Source of the DNA: a virus
Lineage: Duplodnaviria > Caudoviricetes
IMG/VR virus record: IMGVR_UViG_3300032007_000001
Strand: one strand, 5' to 3'
DNA: 64,000 nt
Shown here: positions 12,272 to 57,285 of the stretch, piece after piece
Numbering within the stretch: position 1 is the stretch's first letter
How the letters are laid out: every line of letters begins with the position of its first letter
Position numbers and translations under genes: made by a program
The notes under the pieces: generated by a model
The model's database searches: none
What the model was told of the DNA's origin: nothing
The model's input: only the letters and a program-made list of their open reading frames with translations

Positions 12272-12293
12272 CTCAACAAAAGAGGTGATAATC

Positions 12294-12773: not shown

Positions 12774-12777
12774 GAAC

Positions 12778-12810
12778 AAAAGCAGTGGTACAATGGTCCA
12801 CTGCTTTTTT
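12778..12810 (+). terminator. Intrinsic terminator
   Basis: AAAGCAGTGG...CCACTGCTTTTT. Confidence 0.65.
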
Positions 12811-12898
12811 ATTGTATTTAACAAAATATAAAAGTTTTTCATTTTCTATAATTAATTAGGAAGATATGAATGAAAATTATAGAAGGTGAAAAACTTTT

Positions 12899-13279: not shown

Positions 13280-13285
13280 TATATC

Positions 13286-14050: not shown

Positions 14051-14067
14051 GAAAGGAAAAATAAATA

Positions 14068-14457: not shown

Positions 14458-14527
14458 AAAGTAACAAATTTGTAATACCTTCTTTTATATTTTGTTTTTA
14501 GAACAAATCAAAAAGAAGGTGATAATT

Positions 14528-15079: not shown

Positions 15080-15084
15080 AATAC

Positions 15085-15109
15085 AAAAGACCATTAATTT
15101 GGTCTTTTT
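15085..15109 (+). terminator. Intrinsic terminator
   Basis: AAAAGACCA-TTAATT-TGGTCTTTT. Confidence 0.6.
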
Positions 15110-15141
15110 ATTTTGAATAAAATAAAAAGAGGTGTTAATCA

Positions 15142-17097: not shown

Positions 17098-17130
17098 GAA
17101 ATAAATATATCAATAAGGAGGTATCCAATA

Positions 17131-19011: not shown

Positions 19012-19034
19012 TATAAAAGGAGGTCAAAACAGTC

Positions 19035-20045: not shown

Positions 20046-20066
20046 AAATATATATGGTGATACAAT

Positions 20067-30184: not shown

Positions 30185-30487
30185 TTATTCTACTTCACAA
30201 ACAACATCATTAATTTCCAATTTATCTGCTTCTATCCACTGCGGAATTCTTACGTTGTTATCAAAATCATAACTTTTGATTGCTAAAATTTTATGGTCTT
30301 TCGTAATGCCATTTATTTTTTTATCTTCAAATTCAAAACTTAATAATTCTTCGTCAACATCATATACAAATTTATTGATTACTTCATGCAAACAATTATC
30401 ACTAGCATAAACATAATCACCAATCTTTATATCTTTTAATTTATTTTTTCCATCTAAAGTTCTAACAATATTATTACCACATATACA
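30185..30487 (-). mobile_element. Split intein N-fragment (IntN, 100 aa)
   Basis: Block A CICGNNIVRTLDG, IKIGDYV, block B ITKDHKIL, WIEADKLEIND, then stop. Confidence 0.92.
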
Positions 30488-31687
30488 CCCACGACCTGGG
30501 CCGTTAGCCATTTTTGCTTTGTATCTTATGAACGAAATGATAGAATCATACAATATAAAATACGTTTCAAATCCCATATCTTGTATAACTTTCATTTCAT
30601 GCATTGCGCGCATTCTATCTTTTTTAGATTGGCAATTTTTTCTTGTTAGACCATTCAAAAAAAGATATGTAAGATATTTTGTTTTTTCCAAATCTTTTTC
30701 ATTAATTGATTTAGATAATTCTTTCCAATCATTAAAAGCGTCATCATCTTTTGGTATCTTAACGCTTGGTAAATAATGTTTATCTGAAGAAAATTCAGTC
30801 ATACATTGTTTGGCTATATTTTCTGTATTTTCTACAGCTTCTAATATAGCTTTTTGGTCCAATTTTTCATGACCGTCTCTCTTAAATGCTTCCAATACTT
30901 CTTCTTTGGACATTATATAATAAGTATTGCCACCATAAGTCCAACGTTCTGGATTTGACATTTTGTCTTTACTTTGCATGCATAAAAGAACATCATGTGC
31001 TTCTTTATTTTCTTTTACAAGATAATGTGCGTCTGTTGTTGCTACCAATGGAATCCCCATTTCTTTTGAAAGAGAAATCAAAACTTCATTAACTTTCGCT
31101 TGGTCTTCCATTGCAGTTGGCTGTATCTCTAAATAAAAATTCTCATGAAATAATTTATTATAATAAGCTATCCATTTTTTAGCAGATTCTATATCATCTT
31201 TTTTTATACATTGTGGTATGCGACCAGCAACACATGCAGAAGTTGCAATTAAATTATCAGTTCCAACTTCTTCTAAACATTTATCATCAATTCTTGGCTT
31301 ATAGTAAAAACCTTTTGTAGCACCAAGCGAAGCCAATTTTGAAATTTTCTTATAACCCTCCATATTTTTGGAAAGTATAATCATATGTTCATTTCTATAA
31401 CTTCTATAATGTTCTATATCTTTATTCAACATATCATCAGTGACATAAAATTCCTCACCGACAATAGGCATAACGTTGTTTTTCGTTGCTTCGTTATAAT
31501 GAAACATAACAGCATATAGATTGCCATGGTCTGTTATGCAGCTATACGCTTGATGATTTTCGTTATATTGATTATTAAAATCTTCTGTCAATTTCTTATT
31601 TGTTTTTACCAAGTCTTCAACTCTCAAACACGAATCCAATAGAGAATATTGAGAATGAACATGTAAATTCACAAACATATTTGGCAT
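30185..31687 (-). CDS. dnaE: DNA polymerase III alpha, N-terminal part (PHP domain), ending in split-intein IntN
   Basis: LHVHSQYSLLD, TDHGN, GFYYKPRID, SACVAG, TTDAHY, ends GPGRG|CICG..; ATG at 31687 after GAGGTG RBS. Confidence 0.93.
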   Translation of the reverse strand: MPNMFVNLHVHSQYSLLDSCLRVEDLVKTNKKLTEDFNNQYNENHQAYSCITDHGNLYAVMFHYNEATKNNVMPIVGEEFYVTDDMLNKDIEHYRSYRNEHMIILSKNMEGYKKISKLASLGATKGFYYKPRIDDKCLEEVGTDNLIATSACVAGRIPQCIKKDDIESAKKWIAYYNKLFHENFYLEIQPTAMEDQAKVNEVLISLSKEMGIPLVATTDAHYLVKENKEAHDVLLCMQSKDKMSNPERWTYGGNTYYIMSKEEVLEAFKRDGHEKLDQKAILEAVENTENIAKQCMTEFSSDKHYLPSVKIPKDDDAFNDWKELSKSINEKDLEKTKYLTYLFLNGLTRKNCQSKKDRMRAMHEMKVIQDMGFETYFILYDSIISFIRYKAKMANGPGRGCICGNNIVRTLDGKNKLKDIKIGDYVYASDNCLHEVINKFVYDVDEELLSFEFEDKKINGITKDHKILAIKSYDFDNNVRIPQWIEADKLEINDVVCEVE

Positions 31688-31734
31688 AAAAACACCTCTG
31701 GATATATTATATAAAATAAAATGGTGATTTTGGA

Positions 31735-32121
31735 ATGATAGATAAAACAAATCATAGCGTTTTTTTAACAAATAAAGATGTTATATTTTATAGTGAATAC
31801 GAATGTAACAACTGCGAAATAAAATACTATAATAATGACTTTGTTACATTCGTTTTCAATGGAATATTTAGATTAAAAGTTATAATAGCTTTTAATTTTA
31901 TAGAACCAAGTATAAATTATAGCCAAAATTCTCCACCTATCATGGAATCTTTCAATAATATTGAAAATTTTAAGTTGTTTTTATCTGAACATATATCTAT
32001 CATTAAACTTCCAAAAAAATTTTTGCAAACATTTTTTGACGATGATGCCAAAAAAATAGAAAAAATATTAAAAATGCCAGAAATAAAAAATGAAACAATA
32101 TTATTGAAATACGGCTTATAA
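31735..32121 (+). CDS. Hypothetical protein
   Basis: 128 aa ORF divergent from dnaE-N. Confidence 0.45.
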   Translation: MIDKTNHSVFLTNKDVIFYSEYECNNCEIKYYNNDFVTFVFNGIFRLKVIIAFNFIEPSINYSQNSPPIMESFNNIENFKLFLSEHISIIKLPKKFLQTFFDDDAKKIEKILKMPEIKNETILLKYGL

Positions 32122-33119: not shown

Positions 33120-34106
33120 TTACTTCTTCAATTCTTTGTACCTATCTAACACATACTTAAATTCATTATTAATGAATGGATGGAATAATTCAAGGAAATC
33201 ATTTCTGTTTCCATTTTTCCTATAATTATACATTGCCAAAAATGCAGCATTACTCTGCCAATATTTGTCTTTAATGTTTTCTATCATTTCAAAAATATGT
33301 TTTAAGTTAATTTCGTTTGTAAGTTTTCGCGTTGTTTGTTCAACATTCAAGAATGTCTGTACATCATCATTATTAAAAGAATTATTGAATGGAATATATT
33401 CATCATAAATATCTTTATGTTCTTCATTTACAATATCCTTGCACCAATCCATTTGTTCTATATATAAATGCAAAGAATCAACAACATGTGTATATATACC
33501 AACTTCAATTCCCAAACGATTCGCCATAATTTTTTGCAATACTGTAAAATTAAAAACATCATATGGATAGCCAAACATAATATCATTGCTGCGCATCAGT
33601 ACTAAAAGATTAAGCTTATCATTTCTAATTGAAAATCTCATTAAATTCGTACAAGGTTTGTCTTTCGTTTCTTTGAAATCTTTATTTGGGTCAAACAATA
33701 CAATTGTACCTTGACGAGAATTCTTATCATTTTTCAGAAGTTCGATTACATTTTCAAATTGATTGACTTCATGTTCACTATATCTAAAAATACGTTGCCC
33801 ATATGCACCATTCAATGTCATTCCATCATCGCTGAAATTCATCCAGTTTTTATTATAATGCGCTATATGATGTGCATCATTGCTTCCTTGCAAAATCCAA
33901 GCTAATTCTCCAAGCATAAAACCATAATTAAGTTTCCTGGCTGGACTCAAGATTACATTTTTAAGAGGTTCTTTAATGGTTATACTAGCCGGAGTTATTT
34001 CGAGTGTTTCTATGCCTCGTGGTGCAATTTTCTTACCATTATTTATTAGTTCATTAATCAAATAACTGTAAGAAGAAGGTATTGTATCAAATTCAAATGT
34101 TTTCAT
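33120..34106 (-). CDS. Thymidylate synthase homologue, probable dCMP hydroxymethylase
   Basis: GELAWIL, GAYGQR, SRQ, PC catalytic Cys, MRSNDIMFGYPYD with Asp where ThyA has the dUMP-specifying Asn, SLHLY. Confidence 0.75.
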   Translation of the reverse strand: MKTFEFDTIPSSYSYLINELINNGKKIAPRGIETLEITPASITIKEPLKNVILSPARKLNYGFMLGELAWILQGSNDAHHIAHYNKNWMNFSDDGMTLNGAYGQRIFRYSEHEVNQFENVIELLKNDKNSRQGTIVLFDPNKDFKETKDKPCTNLMRFSIRNDKLNLLVLMRSNDIMFGYPYDVFNFTVLQKIMANRLGIEVGIYTHVVDSLHLYIEQMDWCKDIVNEEHKDIYDEYIPFNNSFNNDDVQTFLNVEQTTRKLTNEINLKHIFEMIENIKDKYWQSNAAFLAMYNYRKNGNRNDFLELFHPFINNEFKYVLDRYKELKK

Positions 34107-34182
34107 AAAAATACTCCTAACAACAAAAAGAAAAATGGAAGAAAAATATCTTCCATTTATTCTATGAAATCAAAAACATTTC

Positions 34183-34965
34183 TTAAATAGCAAGTATTTT
34201 TGTTGGCATTAATTGGTCATCTACATTTAAGCAATCTTCAAAATGTACAACGTCTCCAAGCCTAAGACTTGAACCATAACATCCACCAGCGCCATCATAT
34301 ACGGCTATATATTCATTATTCCCATAAATAATTAATTGTCCTTCTTTTAATTCCAAAAGATTATTTGGGAAATCCCTTCTAGTACTTAACAAATTTGTAA
34401 CTAAATCATTTATCCTACTTGTTCCTTTTAATACTTCTTGCCTAATCAACAAACTATACGTAGAAGCTATTGACATGGCAACTTCCATATATGTTGTCCT
34501 TGGATTTACATTTGGTACAATATTTTTAGCTTTTGTTTTAAGATATCCTTTATATACCAATGATTGGAATGTATTTTTTGATGTATTCAAAAGTTCCCAA
34601 ATGCCCCACGTATTGTTTTCGATATCGCCAGTTCTAACATATATTTTGCCAATTTTACTAGTATCTACAATATCATCAACAACATTCATAATTTGGAATG
34701 ACATATTCCCACAAGCAAAATGAAAAAGAGTTCCTCTTGTACAAAACATTTCTGATATATTTTGGCTTGGAATAATAGAGTACATCATTATCCCATTGAG
34801 TGGCCAAAGTCCAGGACCGTCTTCTTCTGTTGTTATATCAACTGGAAAAACGCTTTCATTTACGAATAAATTATAAATATAATCAACTTTTTCTTTCGTT
34901 GATTCTCTCATTTCATTTAAGTCATTATATAACTTCTTTAATGAAAGTTCTTTTTGTGCTGCCAC
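34183..34965 (-). CDS. Hypothetical protein, possibly structural
   Basis: IYVRTG..WGIWE motif seen in fibre knob-like domains. Confidence 0.4.
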   Translation of the reverse strand: MAAQKELSLKKLYNDLNEMRESTKEKVDYIYNLFVNESVFPVDITTEEDGPGLWPLNGIMMYSIIPSQNISEMFCTRGTLFHFACGNMSFQIMNVVDDIVDTSKIGKIYVRTGDIENNTWGIWELLNTSKNTFQSLVYKGYLKTKAKNIVPNVNPRTTYMEVAMSIASTYSLLIRQEVLKGTSRINDLVTNLLSTRRDFPNNLLELKEGQLIIYGNNEYIAVYDGAGGCYGSSLRLGDVVHFEDCLNVDDQLMPTKILAI

Positions 34966-34966
34966 A

Positions 34967-35923
34967 TCAGCACCTCCTATTTCTTATGCAATTATTGAAT
35001 TCAATAAATTCTTCAAAATCATCTGGATTCAAAGTATCAACTTGTATATTTGTAATTAATGAATTTGTAAGTTCATCATCTATACCACTGCTATATTCTC
35101 CACAGTATACCAATCTTTTTATACCTGAAGAAATAATCATTTTTGTGCAATTAGTACAAGGTTTGCATGTTACATATAATGTAGCATCTTTAATATTAAT
35201 ACCATTCATAGCTGCTTTTGAAATTGCATTTGCTTCAGCATGCTGAGAACGGCAATTGTGCACAATCAATCCAATTCTATCGTTCATATCTATTGCAAAA
35301 TTATTTGTTTCTGGAACTTCTAAATCGTATACCGGAAAAACGCCATTTAATTTTTCAACAGCTATGACTTTATTATGAATCAACGTAAATTCATCATTAA
35401 ATGCAAACATCCTACAAACATCATTTGGTTTTAAGTTAATAGCCTGTTTATATGATAAATCTTGCATCATAATTCTATGGTCACTTGTGCATTTGATTGC
35501 TTTTCTATTTTCAAAAACAATCTTTACTATATCATCTCTTTGACCAGTCAAATGAGGATTCGTTGCTTGTGCTGGAACAACATTACCAGTAAGTTCATCA
35601 ACAGAATATAGCCAAACATCTTCATTTGTTTTTGCAAGTTCTTCCATTGATTTTAATTGTCCATCTAACAATCTTACATAATTATCTCCAGTCAAACAAA
35701 GTTCTTGTCTTTCACCTGAAGGAATATGCAATTTCTCTCTTATACATAATTCGTGATTATCAATACAATGTTCCATGCCAGGCAACGCACCATTATAGCC
35801 AGCACTTAATTGGATTTTATCTCTAGCTATAACGCTACCGACTTGTCTCCTAAAGCACGTTGAACGTGAAGCATACATAAAAGCAATCTTCATAAAAAAA
35901 TGGTCAATATCTTCTCTAATCAC
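34967..35923 (-). CDS. dCMP deaminase interrupted by a mini-intein
   Basis: RSTCFRRQVGSVI, GYNG, HAEANAI, PCTNC zinc motifs; intein insert before CRSQHAE. Confidence 0.9.
   Translation of the reverse strand: MIREDIDHFFMKIAFMYASRSTCFRRQVGSVIARDKIQLSAGYNGALPGMEHCIDNHELCIREKLHIPSGERQELCLTGDNYVRLLDGQLKSMEELAKTNEDVWLYSVDELTGNVVPAQATNPHLTGQRDDIVKIVFENRKAIKCTSDHRIMMQDLSYKQAINLKPNDVCRMFAFNDEFTLIHNKVIAVEKLNGVFPVYDLEVPETNNFAIDMNDRIGLIVHNCRSQHAEANAISKAAMNGINIKDATLYVTCKPCTNCTKMIISSGIKRLVYCGEYSSGIDDELTNSLITNIQVDTLNPDDFEEFIEFNNCIRNRRC
35255..35698 (-). mobile_element. Contiguous mini-intein (148 aa, no endonuclease)
   Basis: CLTGDNYVRLLDG ... CTSDHRIM ... VYDLEV ... IVHN|C. Confidence 0.9.
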
Positions 35924-36627
35924 AAAACCACTACCTTTTCCGGTTTAATGATATCAATCTGTTTTTGTACGTCTCTATCAATAGTAATCCAAGCATTATC
36001 ATAGTGTAAACTTGGACAAACAATACGAGTAGAGTCATCTTCATCATTTACAATATACATTGTAGTTGCATTAACATTACCGCGTGGTACTTTTTCCCAA
36101 TCTTTCGTCAATGCTTGCATAACACTGTATTTATCTATTGCTGCCAAAGTTCTTTCCAATGTTTGTTGGTTATTAAATTTTGACGTATTAATTCTGACAT
36201 AAGGCAAATGTTGAATATGCATAAATTTTTCAAAATTCTCTTTTTCTATACCAAGATGTTCTGGTCTCATAAAATCTTCACCACGACGAGCAATACGTCT
36301 TCTAACATCGCTTGGCGCAGCATGAACATAAATAAAAAATGGAATATAATCCAATCCATACATTTTATTTTCTAATTCTAACAAATATTCTGCTGTATAT
36401 CCACGATAAATCGGCGCATAAATCCATTCACCTTCGTGAAATCTATCCAATAGATAATCGCTATTTTTATCCATATTATCCAAAAAACTAAAATATTGGT
36501 TCCTTCCGTCTTCCATATCTTTTGGATTTGAAAAATGTTGAGTTTTTAATCCTTCAAAATAATCTATTAATTTGTGACATAACGAAGTTTTTCCTGCACA
36601 ATTTACTCCAGATACAATCAAGAACAT
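35920..36627 (-). CDS. dNMP (thymidylate-like) kinase
   Basis: P-loop GVNCAGKT, DRFHEGEWIYAPIYRG, RIARRGED. Confidence 0.8.
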   Translation of the reverse strand: MFLIVSGVNCAGKTSLCHKLIDYFEGLKTQHFSNPKDMEDGRNQYFSFLDNMDKNSDYLLDRFHEGEWIYAPIYRGYTAEYLLELENKMYGLDYIPFFIYVHAAPSDVRRRIARRGEDFMRPEHLGIEKENFEKFMHIQHLPYVRINTSKFNNQQTLERTLAAIDKYSVMQALTKDWEKVPRGNVNATTMYIVNDEDDSTRIVCPSLHYDNAWITIDRDVQKQIDIIKPEKVVVL

Positions 36628-36696
36628 ATAACCACACTCCTTATGGTTATATTCTATAAAAAGAAAAAGAGTAGATTTTTCTACTCTTTTTATATA

Positions 36697-37944
36697 TCAA
36701 TCTGCCAATTGTACAATTCTATACGCGCACATATTGTCTGTTGGTACAGAATACATACTTAAAACGTTAAAATGTCCAGAATCATCATACGCAGAAATAC
36801 CAGCCTCATAATCATCAAGCAAACATATTTTGTTTTCGCAATAATGACTCGACGAATTATCCAAAACATCATTTCCTATAAATATATCACTCATGTCATA
36901 ATTATTTGTTGAATTAAATAAAAAACTCATTACATGACTACCATATTTATACGGTATGGATGTATCAATAATTTCGTTCGAACCATCATTTTTTAATATT
37001 TTATATGTTTGTCTATCACATTCAAATCCATATAACCAACACCGCGATGTATAACGAAGATTGTCTGGTTTGTGTCCAAAAATATCGTATATATTGTGAT
37101 ATTTTGTAGCGAAACCATCATCTTCCATATATTGCTCGTATTCTTCGTATTCTTCATTTTCAATTAACATTTGTAATTCTTCTTCTGTTTTTTCTTCAAT
37201 ACGAATGTCACTCCATAAATTATAGGCACCATATTCAACAAGTAACAATCGTTGTAATAAAGAATGGTCATAAATTGAATACATATTATAACCAGAATTT
37301 CCGTTGCTATTTAATGATAAACATGCATTATACGCATCTTGATAAGAAGTTGTATCTATATCGGACAATCTTATTGACCCTGGTAAATTATTTGTTTTTG
37401 ACGAAAGAAATTTTGCTATTCTTAATTTATGCGGTTGCCCATCGTTTCCGATAAATGCTGGGTGTACATGAAACCCATCTGCATAACCGTCTGCTATCCA
37501 ATAACATACTTTTCCAGCATATGTTCCACTCTGTATAGTCTCTGTCTTTACATATGTAATAGGTATTTCTACAAAATCTCCTACTGATGTTGTTACATTT
37601 CTCATATTGGAATATGTACCATGAGAATATACTTCATTTAAGTTAGCAAACGTTTCTTTATCATATCTAATTCTATCAACAGATTGTGTACTAGTCAATA
37701 CAGCTCCAAGAATATGTTGTGCCTGTGGAACCACAATCGGTACTGTATATTTGGGGACAAAATAATATTTTCCCATTGATTTAACATAAATACCAAGATT
37801 ATTATTATTAACATTATTTACTTGCGTAGCAGCCAAAGGAGATATTACGCCATTATTTCCTTGCCACAATACTCTTGGATATTCATTGTTTTCTGCTATC
37901 CTTACTTCTATTCCTTCTATTGTAGTTGTTGACACTATCATCAC
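36697..37944 (-). CDS. Putative virion/receptor-binding protein
   Basis: GFHVHPAFIG motif common in phage fibre domains; N-terminus shared with 38010..38585. Confidence 0.5.
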   Translation of the reverse strand: MMIVSTTTIEGIEVRIAENNEYPRVLWQGNNGVISPLAATQVNNVNNNNLGIYVKSMGKYYFVPKYTVPIVVPQAQHILGAVLTSTQSVDRIRYDKETFANLNEVYSHGTYSNMRNVTTSVGDFVEIPITYVKTETIQSGTYAGKVCYWIADGYADGFHVHPAFIGNDGQPHKLRIAKFLSSKTNNLPGSIRLSDIDTTSYQDAYNACLSLNSNGNSGYNMYSIYDHSLLQRLLLVEYGAYNLWSDIRIEEKTEEELQMLIENEEYEEYEQYMEDDGFATKYHNIYDIFGHKPDNLRYTSRCWLYGFECDRQTYKILKNDGSNEIIDTSIPYKYGSHVMSFLFNSTNNYDMSDIFIGNDVLDNSSSHYCENKICLLDDYEAGISAYDDSGHFNVLSMYSVPTDNMCAYRIVQLAD

Positions 37945-38009
37945 TTCTCTATTATATTTATATAAATTAAATATAAAAGAACTAATCGTTTGATTAGTTC
38001 TTTTATTTC

Positions 38010-38585
38010 TTAAAAAGCTTCTGCTTTATATACCAATTTATAGATTTTCTTTCCGTAAGAACCACTGCTGAAACTCAATGAATGAATTCCTGATTCAACA
38101 ACATAATCAACATAACCATCTGGATTTTGAGCATTAGTTTGTTCAGTTTCTGAACTCATACTATTTGGAACAGCTACACCGTCTGGCGAATATTCCAAAT
38201 TGCCCTCAATACCAAGATATCTGACTTCTAAATGACGATTTACATTATCCATATTTTCGCCATAGTAATCAGCTAATGTTGGAGCAATATGTTCACTAAA
38301 TCCTTCTATATCATCTAACAATACTTCAGATTCAACTGTATCTAAAGTAAATGTAATTTCCCAATCTTCTTGTGGTGTAACAACTGGTATTAGCTCACCA
38401 TTTATATAAAAATACTTATTATCAGCTTTCAAATAAAGTCCTAATTGTTGATTATTTACCTGCTGCACCTGTTGTGCAGCAACAGCAAATTCCCCTTCGT
38501 TATCTTGGAATATAGCTCTTGGATACGTTGTAGTATCGTCGTTAGCTAATACCGTGACATTAAAACCGTGAAGTTCTTTAATCAT
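38010..38585 (-). CDS. Paralog of the N-terminus of 36697..37944
   Basis: YPR..Q..G..AA.QV..VNN..LG.Y.K...KY shared module. Confidence 0.55.
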   Translation of the reverse strand: MIKELHGFNVTVLANDDTTTYPRAIFQDNEGEFAVAAQQVQQVNNQQLGLYLKADNKYFYINGELIPVVTPQEDWEITFTLDTVESEVLLDDIEGFSEHIAPTLADYYGENMDNVNRHLEVRYLGIEGNLEYSPDGVAVPNSMSSETEQTNAQNPDGYVDYVVESGIHSLSFSSGSYGKKIYKLVYKAEAF

Positions 38586-38658
38586 GTTATTTCACCACTG
38601 TTTATAAAATTTTAATTATTACCTTCTTTCCTTTTTGGCTTTCGTATTTGTTATAAAA

Positions 38659-39057
38659 TTATTTATCCTCTAAAAGGTCTGGTCGCCTTGTAGATTCGCT
38701 ACTTGATGTATCTTTATAAGAATAATCAATAGAATCACTATCTATTTCTTCATTCATTTTATCCAAATCTTCTTTGGAATGCAATGTATCATCCTTTATA
38801 ATCTTATCAAGATGTCCTTCTAGTAAAACTCTATCATTTGTAGCATTTTGTTTTATATTATTTTCATACAAGAAATACTGTAATATACTCTGGTCCCAAT
38901 TTGAAAAATGGTCTCTCATCCAAGTACGAAATAATTTGCCTATTTTATCCGTTTCAATTGGGTCATCTTCGTGTATATCTAAAACATATTTCATTGTTAG
39001 TATTATACTTTTTCTTTTTCTTCTTGGTTTTCCAAGACGTTTCATTTTTTCTTCCAT
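38659..39057 (-). CDS. Hypothetical protein with basic N-terminus
   Basis: MEEKMKRLGKPRRKRK. Confidence 0.5.
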   Translation of the reverse strand: MEEKMKRLGKPRRKRKSIILTMKYVLDIHEDDPIETDKIGKLFRTWMRDHFSNWDQSILQYFLYENNIKQNATNDRVLLEGHLDKIIKDDTLHSKEDLDKMNEEIDSDSIDYSYKDTSSSESTRRPDLLEDK

Positions 39058-39074
39058 ATTAAAAACCTTCTATC

Positions 39075-39560
39075 TTATCTAAAATCATCATCATTAATTA
39101 GAATGCAATCATTATATTGATAGATTTTTTCATAATCTGAATCCAAACTTTTTGTGTAATCAATTAAACTTTCAAAATCACTTAATGGGGCATCTTCCAT
39201 TTTCTTATAATATTCTTCTATTGGCATATCATCTGTTATATGATATTTCTTTCTTAATTCATCCCATTTTAATGGCATAATTCCATAATCATCAAATAAC
39301 ACTAATGCATAATTCCAATCATTATAAGAATCTATCTCTTTAATTTGACCGAAATTCAATATATCATGAATATACATTTTAACAGCTTGCATTGGATTGT
39401 TTGTCTTATAAACATTAAATCCATTAAATACATCGCCATTTCTATAATTTTCTAAATTAAATCCATAATTAACGACATCATCATAATCGTCACCATCTGC
39501 TGGAGTTAATCCTAATACTTTTTCAGCAAAATCTTCATTATCTAATTTTTCAAATGCCAT
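39075..39560 (-). CDS. Acidic hypothetical protein
   Basis: 161 aa ORF with RBS. Confidence 0.5.
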   Translation of the reverse strand: MAFEKLDNEDFAEKVLGLTPADGDDYDDVVNYGFNLENYRNGDVFNGFNVYKTNNPMQAVKMYIHDILNFGQIKEIDSYNDWNYALVLFDDYGIMPLKWDELRKKYHITDDMPIEEYYKKMEDAPLSDFESLIDYTKSLDSDYEKIYQYNDCILINDDDFR

Positions 39561-39602
39561 TTTATATCATTCCTTGTCATACATTTCTCTATAACATAAT
39601 AA

Positions 39603-40148
39603 TTAGAGGTAGGAAAATAAATAATTGTAAATTTTTGCATATGTTTCATTAGAATAATGAATGCCATCTATAGTATCAAATCCATCATTTTTCAAAAAAT
39701 TGTTACTATTTAGAATCATGATGTTGCTTAAAACGTTTTCTTTTACATATATATTAAATGCATCTATTTCACTATTTTTTATTGAATATCCGTATGCTTT
39801 TTCTTTTAATTCTTCAACTGGATTGACTGTCATAAAAATAACTCTTTCGAATCCATTCTTAAATAAATCGTTTATAGCTTCTACGTGTTTTTGCTTGGCT
39901 AAATCATTAACTCCAAGATTATAAATGATTATAGTATCATCTCTTGATAATTGCATTATGTCACTTCTATTTTCCCAATAAAAATTATACCCTACACCAA
40001 TTTCGCAATAATAAATATTTTCATCGTCACCAAGTGCTTCTCTCATTGCAACGAATCTACTATCACCAATAAAGCAATAACTTTCGGCATTGCAATAACT
40101 TACAATTGACATTAAATACAACAAAACAAAAACAATTTTTTTAATCAT
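39603..40148 (-). CDS. Secreted SGNH/GDSL-type hydrolase
   Basis: Signal peptide, FIGDSR, LGVNDL, DGIHY blocks. Confidence 0.7.
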   Translation of the reverse strand: MIKKIVFVLLYLMSIVSYCNAESYCFIGDSRFVAMREALGDDENIYYCEIGVGYNFYWENRSDIMQLSRDDTIIIYNLGVNDLAKQKHVEAINDLFKNGFERVIFMTVNPVEELKEKAYGYSIKNSEIDAFNIYVKENVLSNIMILNSNNFLKNDGFDTIDGIHYSNETYAKIYNYLFSYL

Positions 40149-40223
40149 TATAAAGCCTCACTTATTTTTTAATTTATTGTATCAAAAACAAAAAAATGCA
40201 TTATCGTTTTTAAAAAATTAAAA

Positions 40224-40258
40224 AAACTATTTACATTTCTATTTATTTTTGATATAAT
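40224..40258 (+). promoter_or_regulatory. Early promoter
   Basis: AAACTA-TTTACA-N17-TATAAT. Confidence 0.7.
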
Positions 40259-40282
40259 GTAAAAAATAGGAGAATTATCAAT

Positions 40283-40603
40283 ATGAAATCAACAAAATTT
40301 GTAGAAAAAGATTTTACATTAAAAATTATGTATTGCTACAATAAAAATATAAAAGACGATTTTTGTATGTGGGAAGCTTATTCAAACACAGATACAAAAA
40401 GCAAAGCTGCTGGTGGAATGTCTTTATATATATTTGATGCATTCAACATTCAAAAAATAAAATTAGAAGTTAGAAGAGCGATATTGTTTTGTAATGAAAC
40501 AAACAATTTTGAAATATATTTATTGAACCAACATTTTGACAAAGTATTTGAAAATGTCAAAAATTTTTTGACGAATAAAGCTTTAGAAAGAATAGGGTTA
40601 TAA
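40283..40603 (+). CDS. Hypothetical early protein
   Basis: Has its own promoter, AGGAG RBS and terminator. Confidence 0.6.
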   Translation: MKSTKFVEKDFTLKIMYCYNKNIKDDFCMWEAYSNTDTKSKAAGGMSLYIFDAFNIQKIKLEVRRAILFCNETNNFEIYLLNQHFDKVFENVKNFLTNKALERIGL

Positions 40604-40607
40604 AAAT

Positions 40608-40639
40608 AAAAAGAGAGGAATAAATCCTCTCTTTTTTTT
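40608..40639. terminator. Bidirectional terminator
   Basis: AAAAAGAGAGGA-ATAAA-TCCTCTCTTTTT. Confidence 0.7.
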
Positions 40640-40641
40640 AT

Positions 40642-42060
40642 TTATGCTTTTTTCTTTCTTTTTGACTTTTTGAATTCTTTAATGTCTATTTCCTTATTGC
40701 CTTCGATAATACCGAATATATTCTTTTCGTACATTTCTCTTACACCGAAAACAACAATATTCTTATCTTTATATTCATTGTATAATTTGAGATATTCGTC
40801 AACAAATTCATCATCAATCAAATGTTTAATAATATCTTCATCTGTTTTGAATTTGTTTTTGTCATGTCCTAAATCAAGAATTTCTTGCAACATCTCCGGA
40901 ACAACTTCATCAGCTGAAAATTCCATGTTAATGACTTTATAGCCATTTTTAATCATTTCTTTTTGTTTTTCTACGTCTTTGCTTAATTCAACGATTTCTT
41001 TTGCTGTCTTTTCCAAATCATTCTTATCATTAACCAACATAAATGGATGTTTTAAGTTATAGTCATAATACGTTTCACCAGTTGTTCTGATAAGATGATT
41101 GTGTTTTGCCCAATCAATATCAAATACAGGAATTGCGCCGGCATTGCAATATTCCATCATTGCACATTCCCAACGGTCAGAATACTCAGATTCCTTAAGA
41201 TGGAAACCAGAAAAAGCAAACATAGAATTTGATAATTCCTTCATAGCATCGGCATGAACATATTCTTTATATACCTCTGCACAACCTTTTTCATTTGGCT
41301 GAGGACCCTTATTTGGGTCTGTCATGTCAATACAGTATGGATTATCATAAATATCATCTTTTGCTCCACGAGATTTTTCCATTCCCATTACTTTTACTTG
41401 AAAATCTGGGTCAAACTTCTTAATATATGGAGCCATATTCAAAAGTCTAGATGGGTCTTTTGTTGTTGTCCAACGACCACAGAACATAATCTTCTTGTCT
41501 GTGTGAGGATTCTCATTCCTAAATTGCTTCATTTCTTCAAAGTCAACGCAATGAGTCATGCGCAATACTCTATGTTCTGCTTTTTTACTTGGGAACATAC
41601 CCTCCATAGACCTATTAAACCAAGTATTGGGACCGTAACCATAGATAATATCCATATTATTCATAATGCCAACCAAATATGGAATCTTATCAATAAATGT
41701 TTTATGGAGTTCATACGTAAATCCAACTTTAATAGGCTTCGTTACGCCCTTAACAATCTTTTCATAAAAGTTTCTTGCATAAGAATGACTAAATTTAGCA
41801 TAAGGATAACTCCAAAACATGACAACATCTTTTTCGTTCAACTGTTTTTGAATGTCATCTAAGTCCTTTTCTTTATATCCAACATAATCAAATTTTTGAG
41901 AATTGTGACGAGACATTTTTTTGCCAACATGAGCAAAAATTTGCAAATCTATCCCATTACGTTGACACCACGTCCAAATTTCTACAGCGCATCTTGTACA
42001 TCCAACGCCATCAATAGCTCTACCAAGTACTATAGCAAATTTTGCATTCTTATAATCCAT
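40642..42060 (-). CDS. GT-B glycosyltransferase resembling T4 DNA alpha-glucosyltransferase
   Basis: GRAIDGVGCTR..E..W..RNG, GRWTTTKD, GMEKS and EYCNAGAIPVF match, in order, recalled T4 Agt motifs ARGLEGCGVTK, GRTTTWKG, GLERS and ELGACGTIPVF. Confidence 0.72.
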   Translation of the reverse strand: MDYKNAKFAIVLGRAIDGVGCTRCAVEIWTWCQRNGIDLQIFAHVGKKMSRHNSQKFDYVGYKEKDLDDIQKQLNEKDVVMFWSYPYAKFSHSYARNFYEKIVKGVTKPIKVGFTYELHKTFIDKIPYLVGIMNNMDIIYGYGPNTWFNRSMEGMFPSKKAEHRVLRMTHCVDFEEMKQFRNENPHTDKKIMFCGRWTTTKDPSRLLNMAPYIKKFDPDFQVKVMGMEKSRGAKDDIYDNPYCIDMTDPNKGPQPNEKGCAEVYKEYVHADAMKELSNSMFAFSGFHLKESEYSDRWECAMMEYCNAGAIPVFDIDWAKHNHLIRTTGETYYDYNLKHPFMLVNDKNDLEKTAKEIVELSKDVEKQKEMIKNGYKVINMEFSADEVVPEMLQEILDLGHDKNKFKTDEDIIKHLIDDEFVDEYLKLYNEYKDKNIVVFGVREMYEKNIFGIIEGNKEIDIKEFKKSKRKKKA

Positions 42061-42123
42061 AATTTTCTCCTCTCTTAAATTAAAGATTTATTTATCATAA
42101 TCATTAAAAATGATTTTGTTTTT

Positions 42124-43104
42124 TCAATACCCATTTGGATGTTTGCTATGCCAACGCCAAGCTGTTTCTATAATATGTTCTATATTTGTATATTTGGGAT
42201 TCCATTTCAAAATATTTTTTGCTTTTTCATTAGAAGCAACCAACTCTGGCGGGTCTCCAGGACGGCGTTCTGACATTTTTATTTTTATTTCTTTGCATGT
42301 TACTTTTTGAGCAGCTAAAATAATTTCTTTTACAGAAAAACCATTCCCATTTCCAAGATTGAAAACGTTACTTTCATTTCCGTTTCTTAAATAATCCAAT
42401 GCCAAAATATGTGCATCAGCTAAATCCATGACATGAATATAATCTCTTATACAAGTTCCATCTTTTGTATTATAGTCATTTCCAAAAATATTTACATATT
42501 TCCTTTGACCGAGAGGAACTTGCAATACCAACGGAATCAAGTGCGTTTCATATTTATGGTCTTCACCAATGGACCCATCTTCAATTGCTCCAGCAGCATT
42601 AAAATATCTAAGCGAAACGTATTTGATATGATGTATTTCATCTACCCATCTCATCATTTTTTCCATTATAAGTTTTGATTCGCCATAAGGATTTATTGGA
42701 TTCGTTTCGTTTTTTTCAAAAATTGGAAGTGTTTTTGGTTCTCCGTATGTTGCACATGTTGAAGAAAATACTATTTTATCTGTTCCATGTTTTACCATTG
42801 CTTCCAACAAAACCTGCATTCCATATACATTGTTATTGAAATACTTCAACGGGTTTTTCATGCTTTCAACAACCAATGCGTCAGCAGCAAAATGTACAAC
42901 AGAATTTATCTTATTTTCAGTAAAAACCTTATCAAGAATTTCTTTATTACGAATATCTCCTTGATAGAATTTTACATTTTTAATTGCTTCTGTATGTCCA
43001 GTAGATAAATTGTCTATTACAATTACATCTGTATCTCTTTCCAATAATTGATGTACTGTATGAGAGCCAATATATCCCGCTCCTCCGCAAACCAAAACAG
43101 ACAT
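42124..43104 (-). CDS. galE: UDP-sugar 4-epimerase (GalE/Uxe family)
   Basis: GGAGYIGSH, YGESK, RYFNAAGA, HLIP, RDYIHV. Confidence 0.88.
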   Translation of the reverse strand: MSVLVCGGAGYIGSHTVHQLLERDTDVIVIDNLSTGHTEAIKNVKFYQGDIRNKEILDKVFTENKINSVVHFAADALVVESMKNPLKYFNNNVYGMQVLLEAMVKHGTDKIVFSSTCATYGEPKTLPIFEKNETNPINPYGESKLIMEKMMRWVDEIHHIKYVSLRYFNAAGAIEDGSIGEDHKYETHLIPLVLQVPLGQRKYVNIFGNDYNTKDGTCIRDYIHVMDLADAHILALDYLRNGNESNVFNLGNGNGFSVKEIILAAQKVTCKEIKIKMSERRPGDPPELVASNEKAKNILKWNPKYTNIEHIIETAWRWHSKHPNGY

Positions 43105-43105
43105 A

Positions 43106-44053
43106 TTACTTACCAACTTTCTTAGCAAAATATTCTATCGTTTTTATAAGACCATCATGAGAAGAAATTTTTGGTTCCCAATTCAATTTCTTTTTAGCTA
43201 AAGAAATATCTGGACAACGTTGCATTGGGTCATCCTTTGGAGATTCACAATAAACGATTTCAGATTTTGAATTTGTAAGTTCTTTAATCCACTCTGCAAG
43301 TTCTTTTACTTCATATTCTTCTTGATTACCAATATTGACTGGACCAATAAATCCATCTTCTGAATTCATCATTCTTACTATGGCTTCAATCAAATCATCT
43401 ACATAACAAATACTTCTTGTTTGATGTCCATCGCCATAAATTGTTATTGGTTTTCCAGTCAAACATTGTGTAATAAAATTTGAAATTACTCTGCCATCAT
43501 TAACATCCATATATGGACCGTATGTATTGAAAATACGAACAATTTTTACATTTGTGCCATACATTCTATTATAATTGAATATTAATGATTCTCCAACTCT
43601 TTTGCCTTCATCATAACAAGAACGTAAGCCATTGCAATTGACATTTCCCCAATAACTTTCTGGTTGTATTTTAATTCTTGGGTCTGGGTCTCCATATACT
43701 TCACTTGTACTTGTTTGTAAAAATTTAGCATTATATTTTTTTGCTAAATCAAGCATATTCATTACACCAAGAAAACATGTTTTCAAAGTAAAAACATGGT
43801 CTTTTTGATAATGAGGCGGGCTTGCCGGACATGCTAAATTATAAATTTCATCAACTTCAATATCAATAGGTTCTATGATATCATGTTGAATAAATTCAAA
43901 ACGATTATTATTCAATAAATCTTTTATATTTTCTTTTGTTCCTGTATATAGATTATCTAAACATATGATGTAATCGTCTGTTTCTCTTAATAATTTTCTG
44001 CAAAGATTTGTACCAAGAAATCCAGCACCGCCAGTTACAAGAATTCTTTTCAT
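43106..44053 (-). CDS. uxs: UDP-glucuronate decarboxylase (UDP-xylose synthase)
   Basis: GGAGFLG, LACPASPPHYQ, TSEVYGDP, RSCYDEGKR, RIFNTYGP, DGRVISNF. Confidence 0.88.
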   Translation of the reverse strand: MKRILVTGGAGFLGTNLCRKLLRETDDYIICLDNLYTGTKENIKDLLNNNRFEFIQHDIIEPIDIEVDEIYNLACPASPPHYQKDHVFTLKTCFLGVMNMLDLAKKYNAKFLQTSTSEVYGDPDPRIKIQPESYWGNVNCNGLRSCYDEGKRVGESLIFNYNRMYGTNVKIVRIFNTYGPYMDVNDGRVISNFITQCLTGKPITIYGDGHQTRSICYVDDLIEAIVRMMNSEDGFIGPVNIGNQEEYEVKELAEWIKELTNSKSEIVYCESPKDDPMQRCPDISLAKKKLNWEPKISSHDGLIKTIEYFAKKVGK

Positions 44054-44055
44054 GA

Positions 44056-45345
44056 TTAAGCTCCAATCTGATAGTATGTAAATCCGTTTTCTTGCATTTC
44101 TTTTTTATTATAAAGATTTCTTCCATCAAAAATAATTGGATTATTTAATAAATGTTTCATTTTCTCTTTATCTGATTTGATAAAATCGTTCCATTCTGTA
44201 AGAATGATTAAAGCATCACAACATTGTAACGCGCTATACATATCGTATGTATAAATTACGTTATCCAAATAAAAGTCAGCTGTTTTCATTGCCTGCGGGT
44301 CATAAGCAAAAATTTCTGCACCACGTTTTTGAAGTTCGTTTATAACGACAATAGACGGAGCTTCTCGCATATCATCTGTTTCTGGCTTAAATGCCAATCC
44401 CCAAACAGCAAAACGAATACCTTTCAAATCATTACCAAAATGTTTCAATACTTTCTTTACAATCAACATTTTTTGATCTTTATTTACCTCTTCAACAGCT
44501 TTTAAGATTCTTGAATTATATTTAATGTCTTTACTTGTTTTAATTAATGCTTGTACATCTTTAGGGAAGCAACTTCCACCATATCCGCAACCAGGATTTA
44601 TAAATTTGAATCCAATCCTCGAATCCATTCCCATTCCTTTACGAACATAATTTATATCTGCACCAACTCGTTCACAAATATTAGAAATTTCGTTAATAAA
44701 CGAAATCTTGGTTGCCAACATTGCGTTTGATGCATATTTTGTAAGTTCTGCACTTCTAATATCCATCAATACGAATTTTTCGTCCGGTACAAAATCATAT
44801 AATTTTCTCATAAGTTCAGATGAACTATCACATCCAACCACAACTCTATCTGGATTTAAGAAATCATCAATTGCAGAACCTTCTTTTAAGAATTCCGGAT
44901 TTGAAACAACATGAAAAGGAATTTCAACGTTTCTAGCAAAAAGTTCTCTTTTTATAATGCTCTTTACTTTATCAGCCGTTCCAACTGGAACGGTTGATTT
45001 ATCTACTACAGTAATTTCTTTTTCAATATTTTGTCCTATTTCTTTTGCAACGCCAAGAACATATTGCAAATCCGCACTTCCATCTTCGCCCATCGGAGTG
45101 CCAACAGCAATAAATGCAATATCACAATTTTTGATTTCTTTTATATTGGTTGAAAAAGAAATATGTTCTTTATTTTGTTCAATTAATTCTTTTAATCCTG
45201 GTTCATAAATTGGAATCTCACCATTTTGCAATTTCTTAATTTTTTCTTCTACAACGTCTATACATATAACGTTATTTCCTTTTGAAGCAAAACATACACC
45301 AGTAACAAGACCAACATATCCAGTTCCAATAATAGCTATTTTCAT
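44056..45345 (-). CDS. ugd: UDP-glucose 6-dehydrogenase
   Basis: GTGYVG, KSTVPVGT, NPEFLKEG, GYGGSCFPKD, FKPETDDMRE; start at MKIAII. Confidence 0.92.
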   Translation of the reverse strand: MKIAIIGTGYVGLVTGVCFASKGNNVICIDVVEEKIKKLQNGEIPIYEPGLKELIEQNKEHISFSTNIKEIKNCDIAFIAVGTPMGEDGSADLQYVLGVAKEIGQNIEKEITVVDKSTVPVGTADKVKSIIKRELFARNVEIPFHVVSNPEFLKEGSAIDDFLNPDRVVVGCDSSSELMRKLYDFVPDEKFVLMDIRSAELTKYASNAMLATKISFINEISNICERVGADINYVRKGMGMDSRIGFKFINPGCGYGGSCFPKDVQALIKTSKDIKYNSRILKAVEEVNKDQKMLIVKKVLKHFGNDLKGIRFAVWGLAFKPETDDMREAPSIVVINELQKRGAEIFAYDPQAMKTADFYLDNVIYTYDMYSALQCCDALIILTEWNDFIKSDKEKMKHLLNNPIIFDGRNLYNKKEMQENGFTYYQIGA

Positions 45346-45541: not shown

Positions 45542-45817
45542 TTGAAGAGATTAATTAAAGCAAACAATCAAAATAGTTTTGATGAAAACATTGACGAAAT
45601 GTCATCAAAATTATATAAACTAAAAGAAACGTACGAAGATATATCGTACGTACATGAAAGATATAAACAATATATAAAAAGTGAAATGAATAACAAAGAA
45701 GAACAATTAATTACATTAAGAAACAATATGAAACAAATGCTAAAAAGTAATGAAAAATATATTTCCGAATATGAAAATATCATTAAAAATTTTATAAATG
45801 ACTTGGAGGAAAAATAA
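45542..45817 (+). CDS. Small protein with MKRLIKA leader
   Basis: Leader family, helical body. Confidence 0.6.
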   Translation: MKRLIKANNQNSFDENIDEMSSKLYKLKETYEDISYVHERYKQYIKSEMNNKEEQLITLRNNMKQMLKSNEKYISEYENIIKNFINDLEEK

Positions 45818-52757: not shown

Positions 52758-52759
52758 TT

Positions 52760-53233
52760 TTATTCTCCTTCCTGAATTTTATGCTTTTCTGCAAATGCGT
52801 CAATATATTCTTTCATTTTATTATCTATAAATATTGCGTCTTTAAAAAATTCTGTACAAATATTAACAACATTTTCAGCTTCAGCAATAAACAAATACAT
52901 AAGCGTATGCCATAAAACATCGTTTTGTTTTTGTGTTGATATTCCGTTTTGTTCTCCATACATACATATCATTGAATTTTCATCATGAGAATCAAATTTT
53001 GCAATAATATCTTTTGATTTAAAATCAACAACAATCTGTAGTTGTCCTGGAAAATCAACGACAATCATTAAATCATCAGCTAACTTAGAATCAGAAAAAG
53101 AAAATATTTTTTCTTTCATTATTTCTTTTGCTTCACTAGCAGCCATAAACAATTCTTCTGAATTATACGATTTTTGATTAAATTTATAAAAATCACTCGA
53201 ATGTTTCCCGCCATACGTAATTTCATACACCAT
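52760..53233 (-). CDS. Hypothetical protein between hen1 and pnkp
   Basis: 157 aa, overlaps the hen1 stop, 2 nt from the pnkp start. Confidence 0.55.
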   Translation of the reverse strand: MVYEITYGGKHSSDFYKFNQKSYNSEELFMAASEAKEIMKEKIFSFSDSKLADDLMIVVDFPGQLQIVVDFKSKDIIAKFDSHDENSMICMYGEQNGISTQKQNDVLWHTLMYLFIAEAENVVNICTEFFKDAIFIDNKMKEYIDAFAEKHKIQEGE

Positions 53234-57159: not shown

Positions 57160-57184
57160 GACACTACCTCCTTTATTTATCCAT

Positions 57185-57219
57185 ATTATACCATAATTAT
57201 GACTATTTGTAAATAGTTT
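57185..57219 (-). promoter_or_regulatory. Early promoter
   Basis: Minus strand AAACTA-TTTACA-N17-TATAAT. Confidence 0.7.
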
Positions 57220-57245
57220 TTTTCACTTTTCATACACATCTTATT

Positions 57246-57272
57246 AAAAAAGAGGGGCAATATTTGCCCCTC
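57246..57272 (-). terminator. Intrinsic terminator after the AAA gene
   Basis: Minus strand GAGGGGCAA-ATA-TTGCCCCTC followed by a T run. Confidence 0.7.
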
Positions 57273-57285
57273 AATTTTCTTTGAG

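Follow-up and report, generated by a model that had tools for sequence, protein, structure and literature searches.

Which sugar does a huge phage attach to its DNA when the gene for a DNA glycosyltransferase homologue is preceded, in the same operon, by genes for a sugar-nucleotide pathway? The question is raised by the minus-strand operon ugd-uxs-galE-GT in a stretch of 64,000 nucleotides (hereafter the window), which corresponds to bases 257438-321437 of a single virus record of 504,279 bp (IMG/VR IMGVR_UViG_3300032007_000001) that is rated as complete by CheckV. A first-pass annotation, made from the sequence alone, had proposed that this phage makes its own 5-hydroxymethylcytosine (hmC) or 5-hydroxycytosine DNA and decorates it with a pentose from a phage-encoded uridine diphosphate (UDP)-pentose pathway. 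Our data support the proposal, with hmC as the predicted base; comparative support comes from the joint inheritance of the sugar-nucleotide genes and the glycosyltransferase (GT) gene and from changes of the transferase at sugar-associated positions in the phages that carry them. We consider it rather likely that the phage DNA carries xylosyl- or L-arabinopyranosyl-hmC with the sugar supplied by the phage's own Ugd-Uxs-GalE pathway, and very likely that the locus is a base-modification module which combines hmC with a transferase resembling the T4 DNA alpha-glucosyltransferase (AGT). The window has a GC content of about 29 % and its genes include tail-fibre, DNA polymerase III, intein and RNA-repair genes. 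The nearest isolated relative of the phage is Bacillus phage G (497 kb), and the public sequencing runs that contain the stretch are bovine-gut metagenomes.

The operon and the hairpins on both sides of it are as follows (positions are those of the window; the supporting evidence is given in brackets):

45629..45651, minus strand: terminator-like hairpin upstream of ugd (8-bp stem, 4 GC pairs, T-run)
44056..45345, minus strand: Ugd, UDP-glucose 6-dehydrogenase, 429 residues (Pfam, TIGR03026, motif)
43106..44053, minus strand: Uxs, UDP-glucuronate decarboxylase, 315 residues (UXS1 match, motifs)
42124..43104, minus strand: GalE-family UDP-sugar 4-epimerase, 326 residues (TIGR01179, 2c20)
40642..42060, minus strand: AGT-like DNA glycosyltransferase homologue (GT72, GT-B fold), 472 residues (phmmer, PHROG, AlphaFold2, Foldseek)
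40608..40636, minus strand: strong terminator-like hairpin closing the operon (12-bp stem and T-run, six bases past the GT stop)

These genes form one tight operon bracketed by terminator-like hairpins, and the arrangement described in the first-pass annotation is thus present with all its genes, at or very near their earlier coordinates. The first three genes are spaced at most 2 nt apart, and a 63-nt spacer with a strong ribosome-binding site precedes GT. Translation of ugd starts at the ATG at 45345 behind a GGAGAG ribosome-binding site, and galE probably starts at the ATG at 43104, one base past the Uxs stop, rather than at the TTG at 43128. The only terminator-like site within the unit is a weak 5-bp stem inside uxs, while the hairpin at 45629..45651 would terminate the transcription unit preceding the sugar operon. 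No promoter is claimed, as sigma-70-type matches in the window numbered 96 against 102 expected by chance. Error-free contigs of a metatranscriptome library made from bovine gut in a separate study cover, in part, GT, the ugd-uxs and uxs-galE junctions and the thymidylate synthase (TS) homologue described below; such contigs may stem from contaminating DNA and were not counted as proof of transcription or co-transcription, and a lack of cover elsewhere carries no meaning. The gene arrangement is not due to chance, because several independent metagenomic contigs contain this set of genes as well. The operon had no match in a megablast search of 50,697 phage records.

The transferase is firmly placed as a homologue of the T4 AGT family of DNA glycosyltransferases by sequence comparison and by its modelled fold. 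The four motifs quoted in the first-pass annotation are present and each aligns with its T4 AGT equivalent. In a phmmer search of the PDB, T4 AGT was the only significant match (E 3e-9), and the protein also matched PHROG 2888 'alpha-glucosyltransferase' (E 5e-70) and T4-like AGTs in tblastn (1e-7 to 5e-10), with an identity to T4 AGT of about 20 %. PF11440 was not among its matches in the Pfam scan (E <=0.01) and is on record for close relatives. The family is small: relatives were found in only 130 clusters among 1.84 billion cluster representatives. An AlphaFold2 model built on 112 of these clusters reached a predicted local distance difference test score (pLDDT) of 96.1 and a predicted template-modelling score (pTM) of 0.94. 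When this model was searched with Foldseek, ranks 1-9 all went to structures of T4 AGT, with E 6e-24 to 3e-21 and TM 0.81-0.89; after them came a different fold, GT4 PimB', at E 7e-12, a gap of 9 to 12 orders of magnitude. The protein therefore groups with T4 AGT and not with lipopolysaccharide or protein glycosyltransferases; grouping with the latter had been named in the first-pass annotation as an outcome that would refute its proposal. Residues 400-472 (about 70 residues) make up an extra C-terminal domain that is missing from T4 AGT.

In a passage of PMC6024577, Gly15, Arg204 and Glu311 are given as UDP-binding residues of T4 AGT, with Glu306 as a conserved residue. The corresponding features are retained in the window GT, where Gly20, Arg196, Lys201, Glu298 and Glu303 are invariant or nearly so in the 112 family members. 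The glucose-contacting residues are not: His114, His116 and His140 of T4 AGT are replaced by Tyr116, Leu118 and Tyr142. Searches of the 504-kb genome for GT2, for further GT1 or Glyco_trans_1_4 members and for NTP_transferase gave no match, which leaves the AGT-like protein as the sole visible consumer, with host UDP-glucose as the one input in sight. The T4 beta-glucosyltransferase family likewise had no match in the genome; this search lacked a positive control and carries no weight. We propose that the enzyme transfers a pentose to hmC in DNA.

The identity of the three upstream enzymes bears on which pentose this would be. Ugd has the Pfam N-terminal, central and C-terminal domains of a three-domain nucleoside diphosphate (NDP)-sugar dehydrogenase and the GGSCFPKD Cys motif; it scored 460 bits against TIGR03026 (NDP-sugar dehydrogenase, cut-off 190) and 520 bits against the TuaD equivalog model, below the cut-off of 700. 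Uxs belongs with the UXS enzymes, as it matched human UXS1 (4gll/2b69) over its full length (residues 2-312) with E 4e-101, the next class being at 9e-36, and has the motifs GGAGFLG, STSEVYG and YDEGK all intact. The GalE-family protein carries the YGESK motif, scored 457 bits against TIGR01179 (UDP-glucose 4-epimerase equivalog, cut-off 262) and matched Bacillus anthracis GalE (2c20) with E 3e-125. We know of no sequence signature of Uxe (UDP-xylose 4-epimerase), and none was used; that GalE acts as a Uxe is proposed from gene order and pathway economy, and alternatively it may interconvert UDP-Gal and UDP-Glc. A Ugd-Uxs-Uxe route to UDP-L-arabinose is established in Sinorhizobium meliloti (Gu et al. 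2011, as related in passages of PMC6024577 and PMC8196924). Since Uxs destroys UDP-glucuronate (UDP-GlcA), and Ugd and Uxs are of no use for making UDP-Glc or UDP-Gal, only UDP-Xyl and UDP-L-Ara need all the genes. If GalE is needed, L-arabinopyranose would be the economical answer, and if GalE merely recycles UDP-Gal to UDP-Glc, the sugar would be xylose.

Close homologues of the GT were taken from IMG/VR and European Nucleotide Archive (ENA) metagenomes. In every context read, the GT is contiguous with a 132-residue protein, a kinase, a deaminase, a 260-residue protein and the TS homologue. The gap of 4-7 kb between GT and the nucleotide genes in the window comes from lineage-specific insertions, and the GT thus belongs to the base-modification module. 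The cassette ugd-uxs-galE stands directly upstream of GT in three contexts read, namely the window, P0002 and P0003 (the last two from several samples), and its order with GT is kept over 30 % protein divergence. A fourth homologue, P0001, is 97 % identical and lies on a 2.2-kb contig; it was counted as cassette-associated by assumption, not from its context. In the maximum-likelihood tree these four GTs form one clade with 100/100 support, sister to a cassette-free clade whose members are 59-64 % identical to the window GT. The P0004 and P0005 GTs lack the cassette upstream and are preceded by the same sigma-like gene; Uxs does not occur anywhere in the genome of a 416-kb cassette-free relative or in that of Bacillus phage G. 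The cassette proteins have diverged to the same extent as the GT (62-75 % vs 70-72 % identity) and remain intact.

In contig L015 (5447-6729), ugd was called as two pieces of 139 and 249 residues, which is either an assembly error or a recent inactivation; the gene is intact (427 residues) in the near-identical L016.

Other AGT-like genes are also preceded by genes for sugar nucleotides. In phage G and in P0008 they directly follow a HAD gene and an NTP_transf (nucleotidyltransferase) gene, in P0010 an NTP_transferase gene and in P0011 a CTP_transf_like (cytidylyltransferase-like) gene, and TS homologues, dCMP deaminases, dUTPases or further transferases occur near them. The slot occupied by ugd-uxs-galE is therefore the site at which this family keeps its donor-synthesis genes. 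The findings as a whole also hint at a family of distinct DNA glycans in phage G and its relatives.

A separate observation concerns L027 (JGI 3300042691 contig, 202 kb), where a larger cluster at 6394-16237 includes a distant AGT-like gene, an NTP_transferase gene and two further glycosyltransferase genes, and also encodes a TS homologue, an Exo_endo_phos protein and two C5 DNA methylases. The cluster is a candidate multi-sugar DNA hypermodification locus.

Gain of the cassette was accompanied by changes in the transferase itself. Twelve alignment columns are invariant in five cassette-free phage-G-like GTs and different in all four cassette-linked GTs, and two of the twelve are conserved as far as Geobacillus phage GR1 and T4, namely those of T4 His114 and T4 Tyr307. 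His114 is listed among the glucose-contacting residues of T4 AGT in a passage of PMC6024577 which cites the AGT structure paper. It is replaced by Tyr116 in the cassette clade and is kept in every non-cassette phage-G-like member, in GR1 and in T4, the register being that of the family alignments, which agree with each other. Tyr307, beside the conserved Glu306, is replaced by Cys299 in a column that has Tyr in 83 of 112 members and Cys only in the cassette clade. In the GT model, Tyr116 follows N-domain strand 110-114 and Cys299 opens C-domain helix 299-307, sites which would correspond to the usual cleft-facing positions for the donor sugar in GT-B enzymes. As judged from the alignment, a bulkier Tyr at a glucose contact would fit a donor without C6. 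One further protein with Tyr at the His114 column, P0122, lies on a 5-kb contig beside a C5 methylase and FolD and is uninformative on its sugar.

A rival reading supposes another donor, UDP-GlcA or UDP-galacturonate, which would give a negatively charged uronosyl-hmC, or UDP-galactose, with Uxs only regulating the pool. Ugd comes first in the operon, GalE-family enzymes can in principle epimerise several UDP-sugars, and the cassette-linked GTs also show Lys-to-Glu, Lys-to-Gln and similar changes, which reveal that the protein has changed and do not indicate the direction. Against this stands the irreversible removal of UDP-GlcA by Uxs, which makes Uxs in the same operon counter-productive for a uronate donor; for a galactose donor Ugd and Uxs are unnecessary. 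Furthermore, all three cassette genes are intact in the lineages read, and a bulkier Tyr in place of His would suit a smaller sugar, not a larger or charged one. We regard such a donor as quite improbable.

A further possibility is that the phage makes ordinary glucosyl- or galactosyl-hmC from host UDP-Glc or from GalE-made UDP-Gal, and that ugd-uxs(-galE) is an auxiliary metabolic cassette that happens to lie beside GT. Possible roles of such a cassette would be to drain host UDP-glucose, to alter wall teichoic or teichuronic acid receptors and thereby exclude other phages, or to provide sugars for glycosylation of the virion or host surface by host enzymes. The sister-clade GTs do work without the cassette at 59-64 % identity, GalE passes the UDP-glucose 4-epimerase equivalog model, Ugd is most like the teichuronic-acid enzyme TuaD, and Uxs is found in unrelated phages that have no AGT-like gene. 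An accidental neighbourhood is at odds with the tight operon between terminator-like hairpins, with the gene order kept over 30 % protein divergence in three contexts from several metagenomes, with changes at glucose-associated GT positions that are confined to the cassette clade, with the lack of any other glycosyltransferase found in the genome, and with the donor-synthesis genes that likewise stand directly upstream of other AGT-like genes. On balance we hold an auxiliary cassette to be unlikely.

Several observations nevertheless weigh against a pentose donor or the module around it. GalE is of an ordinary Bacillus type and its sequence gives no hint of UDP-xylose. Uxs or Ugd also serve other purposes in phages and giant viruses; an uncultured 462-kb phage (LR756500.1), considered as an independent example, was rejected since its Uxs lies among replication genes and it has no AGT-like gene. 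Across the AGT family the residue at the His114 column varies, with His in 62 of 112 members and Asn, Leu, Val and Phe among the others, so that Tyr at this position is not diagnostic alone, and a pairwise HMMER alignment puts Tyr116 one residue off His114. Gain of the cassette and both residue changes share one branch of the tree and thus represent a single event rather than replicated co-variation. Finally, no clear dCTPase is linked to the module, a dUTPase_2-family gene about 130 kb away being a candidate only.

Taken together, the pentose reading still accounts for the operon as a whole, and it can be extended. It is tempting to suggest that alpha-D-xylopyranosyl- or beta-L-arabinopyranosyl-hmC takes the place of cytosine in a clade of huge rumen phages, that the pentose comes from a complete phage-encoded Ugd-Uxs-Uxe pathway, that the AGT was retuned from hexose to pentose by the His-to-Tyr and Tyr-to-Cys changes in the sugar pocket, and that AGT-like genes are exchangeable units of donor cassette plus transferase; for this fuller claim we see the scales as evenly balanced. 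If it is true, exchange of such units would diversify DNA glycans among related phages.

The nature of the base depends on the TS homologue:

33120..34106, minus strand: TS homologue, predicted dCMP 5-hydroxymethylase (Cys152, Asp149, Asp175, Asp183)

It carries the RSNDIMFGYPYD motif, and its Cys152 (ThyA Cys146), in a PCTN motif, is invariant in the alignments. Three further columns were compared with the work reported in PMC13326640 (Lee et al., NAR 2026), according to which N177D marks dCMP as the substrate of TS homologues, an acidic residue at Leu143 gives water access and a non-methyl product, and D169N marks the 5-hydroxy-dCMP synthases of RB69, DLP3, Thanatos and RL38JI, all tested ones having Asn. 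At the Asn177 column the window protein has Asp (Asp183), in accordance with the first-pass annotation and as in T4 gp42, phage G gp319, VPE25 and MilA; the dUMP hydroxymethylases of SPO1 (gp29) and SP-10, and the window phage's own ThyA, keep Asn. The Leu143 column has Asp149, and at the Asp169 column Asp is kept (Asp175, in an RSND motif). The phage's own ThyA has Leu, Asp and Asn at positions 143, 169 and 177. This is the residue pattern of T4 gp42 with Asp169 kept, and the predicted product is therefore 5-hydroxymethyl-dCMP, not the 5-hydroxy-dCMP of RB69. Of the two bases entertained in the first-pass annotation, hmC is thus retained as a prediction, while hydroxy-C is disfavoured by Asp169. 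Production of dTMP, which had been named as an outcome that would overturn the proposal, is not suggested by the Asp at the Asn177 column or by the presence of a separate canonical ThyA, which scores 283 bits and is encoded some 10 kb ahead of the window, an arrangement that parallels T4 td and gp42. A thymine-replacing phage would have little use for a canonical ThyA.

The best PDB match of the TS homologue is MilA (5jnh, E 8e-37), ahead of ThyA (1e-17) and T4 gp42 (3e-12). Its nearest phage homologue is phage G gp319 (49 %), followed by proven dUMP hydroxymethylases and by the VPE25 homologue, which adjoins a beta-glucosyltransferase. MilA is a CMP hydroxymethylase, and the 5-hydroxy-dCMP synthase of RL38JI also has MilA as best PDB match (PMC13326640). 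One may thus ask whether the acceptor is something other than hmC, the enzyme making 5-hydroxy-dCMP or 5-methyl-dCMP or acting on CMP like MilA, with the sugar attached differently or not to DNA at all. The retained Asp169, against Asn in all tested 5-hydroxy-dCMP synthases, the Asp at the Leu143 position, which argues against a methyl product, and the fact that the gene is linked in every relative to those for a DNA glycosyltransferase homologue, a dNMP kinase and a dCMP deaminase make such an acceptor very improbable, and we keep hmC as the predicted base.

The genes that lie between GT and the TS homologue, or accompany them in relatives, are:

38659..39057, minus strand: conserved 132-residue protein, downstream of GT in relatives
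35920..36627, minus strand: deoxynucleoside monophosphate (dNMP) kinase, thymidylate-kinase-like (phrog_761, E 6e-20)
34967..35923, minus strand: dCMP deaminase with intein (dCMP_cyt_deam_1, E 3e-22 in two stretches, and Intein_splicing)
34183..34965, minus strand: conserved 260-residue protein, always between deaminase and TS homologue in the clade
36697-37944, 38010-38585, 39075-39560 and 39603-40148, minus strand: open reading frames between GT and the nucleotide genes, in the window phage only

The kinase, deaminase and TS homologue are thus all present some 4-7 kb downstream of GT, where the first-pass annotation had placed them. The kinase gives weak AAA_18 and Thymidylate_kin matches in Pfam and is 37.5 % identical to phage G gp315; by analogy with T4 gp1 we propose that it phosphorylates hm-dCMP. 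The intein of the deaminase is present in the relatives L016 and L020 and missing from L013. The 132-residue protein, found in relatives downstream of GT directly or after a few small genes, has no family match (PHROG included) and no Atlas match. Its identity is 81-86 % between phages that share only 47-75 % in the neighbouring genes, and by this measure it is a strongly constrained partner of the module. The 260-residue protein has Cys75, His82, Cys229, His241 and Cys245 invariant in all close relatives and no Pfam, PHROG or NCBIfam match, its Atlas matches all being <0.9. Its AlphaFold2 model is poor (pLDDT 64.5), and Foldseek gave nothing at E <=0.001, only short and weak local NlpC/P60-like matches (E 0.09-0.6). 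In relatives, DUF7487 proteins are encoded at different points between GT and the nucleotide genes, which suggests mobile insertions in this region. With respect to a T4-style dCTPase, neither MazG nor a trimeric dUTPase was found in the genome; a dUTPase_2-family protein at 429.7-430.5 kb of the genome matches PF08761 with 36 bits and T4 gp56 weakly (E 1e-3).

A pathway consistent with these data would start with conversion of dCMP to 5-hydroxymethyl-dCMP by the TS homologue. The kinase would raise hm-dCMP to the diphosphate and host nucleoside diphosphate kinase (NDK) would complete hm-dCTP, while removal of dCTP may fall to the distantly encoded dUTPase_2-family protein, and the dCMP deaminase would supply dUMP to the canonical ThyA so that the dTTP supply is kept. 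After replication, the AGT-like GT-B enzyme would glycosylate hmC in duplex DNA, with a UDP-pentose from the three presumably co-transcribed genes, and not host UDP-glucose, as donor. Ugd would oxidise host UDP-Glc to UDP-GlcA, Uxs would convert this to UDP-alpha-D-xylose, and the GalE-family epimerase, most economically, would turn UDP-Xyl into UDP-beta-L-arabinopyranose. AGT is a retaining enzyme, and the product would consequently be alpha-D-xylopyranosyl-hmC or beta-L-arabinopyranosyl-hmC. The modification would be expected to shield the DNA of the phage against restriction, against CRISPR nucleases and against defences that target glucosyl-hmC.

Some further features of the window were noted. 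Four tandem plus-strand genes with phage tail Collar domains (651, 626, 336 and 585 residues) lie at 15142-21824, in a block with a GC content of 42-47 % against about 29 % elsewhere, and may be recently acquired or diversifying receptor-binding fibres. On the minus strand, at 50163-54536, a Pnkp/Hen1-type RNA repair pair flanks an open reading frame of 157 residues (52760-53233); the pair consists of an 864-residue protein with Metallophos and PNKP ligase domains and a 437-residue protein with a Hen1 N-domain and a methyltransferase domain. It is unusual phage cargo and may counter host anticodon nucleases. By domain content, DNA polymerase III alpha seems to be encoded in two parts some 23 kb from each other, one gene with the PHP domain and one with the polymerase core (NTPase, finger, HhH):

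30185-31771 and 5070-7508, minus strand: split DNA polymerase III alpha genes

At 55714-58506, also on the minus strand, a DUF2201 metallopeptidase/VWA-like protein is encoded beside an AAA ATPase, resembling known two-gene modules. Rfam and tRNA scans of the window found none.

Glycosylated cytosines are a classic phage counter-measure to restriction enzymes and CRISPR nucleases, and host enzymes that recognise individual hmC sugars have evolved in response. A new sugar is accordingly a further move in this arms race, and it could serve as a reagent for labelling hmC or for making nuclease-resistant DNA. The sister clades with and without the cassette moreover provide a natural experiment on donor switching in a DNA glycosyltransferase, with two candidate residues.

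Of the known systems, that of the T-even phages is the obvious reference: T4 uses the gp42 hydroxymethylase, gp1 kinase, cd deaminase, td, gp56 and AGT to arrive at glucosyl-hmC. The window phage resembles it in having a TS homologue with four shared signature residues, a dNMP kinase, a dCMP deaminase, a separate ThyA and a GT-B transferase that is nearest to T4 AGT. It differs in that the GT is apparently co-transcribed with a phage UDP-pentose pathway, whereas T4 uses host UDP-glucose, and in that the GT has none of the glucose-contacting His residues and carries an additional domain at its C-terminus. Its TS homologue is also closer to MilA and SPO1 gp29 than to gp42, and no T4-type dCTPase is linked to the module.

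Phage G has a syntenic module in a genome of similar size (about 500 kb), consisting of the TS homologue gp319, the deaminase gp317, the kinase gp315, the AGT-like gp306 and gp313, the nucleotidyltransferase gp309 and the HAD protein gp310, with identities to the window proteins of 49 % for TS, 39 % and 34-36 % for GT and 37.5 % for the kinase. Unlike the window phage it has two AGT paralogues and a HAD plus nucleotidyltransferase cassette instead of ugd-uxs-galE, and its GTs keep the His and Tyr at the two sugar-associated positions that are changed in the window GT. The DNA modification of phage G has not been determined biochemically, and gp306 is uncharacterised (PMC6024577).

RB69 and DLP3 also place a pentose on a C5-functionalised cytosine, with a TS homologue that acts at the mononucleotide level and phage enzymes that activate the sugar (PMC13326640, PMC6024577). 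The RB69-type modification, which the first-pass annotation had mentioned as an arabinosylation by a different sugar route, is now described not as arabinosyl-hmC but as mono- to tri-D-arabinofuranosyl-5-hydroxycytosine with the sugar derived from ribulose-5-phosphate (PMC13326640). These phages have a D169N synthase, an arabinose-5-phosphate isomerase route, non-AGT transferases and chains of up to three sugars; the window phage in contrast keeps Asp169, has a Ugd-Uxs-GalE route to the pyranoses UDP-Xyl or UDP-L-Ara and a single AGT-like transferase. A Uxs/Uxe route was raised as a hypothesis for RB69 by Thomas et al. 2018, who found no such genes there (PMC6024577). Shewanella phage Thanatos likewise has a pentose-type sugar on cytosine and an enzyme that can make UDP-xylose in vitro, although by a pyrophosphorylase reaction from the stand-in substrate xylose-1-phosphate, the natural sugar being a deoxypentose (PMC12838424); it further differs in its D169N-type TS homologue and in having no Ugd or Uxs. 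TET-linked phage transferases add hexose, HexNAc or heptose (bioRxiv 10.1101/2023.12.21.572611).

The Ugd-Uxs-Uxe pathway of S. meliloti and plants has the same enzyme order and families, Uxe being a GalE-family 4-epimerase. The cellular pathway feeds polysaccharides and glycoconjugates, whereas the window version is phage-encoded and joined to a DNA glycosyltransferase homologue. The papers searched contained neither a phage Ugd-Uxs-epimerase pathway linked to DNA modification nor a pentopyranose on hmC made via UDP-glucuronate. The first-pass annotation had named the base as one not known to be described. Pentosylated cytosines as a class are already described (PMC13326640), the known pentose cases being arabinofuranose on 5-hydroxycytosine and a deoxypentose (PMC13326640, PMC12838424). 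Seen beside these systems, pentosyl-hmC would be a new chemical variant of a known strategy.

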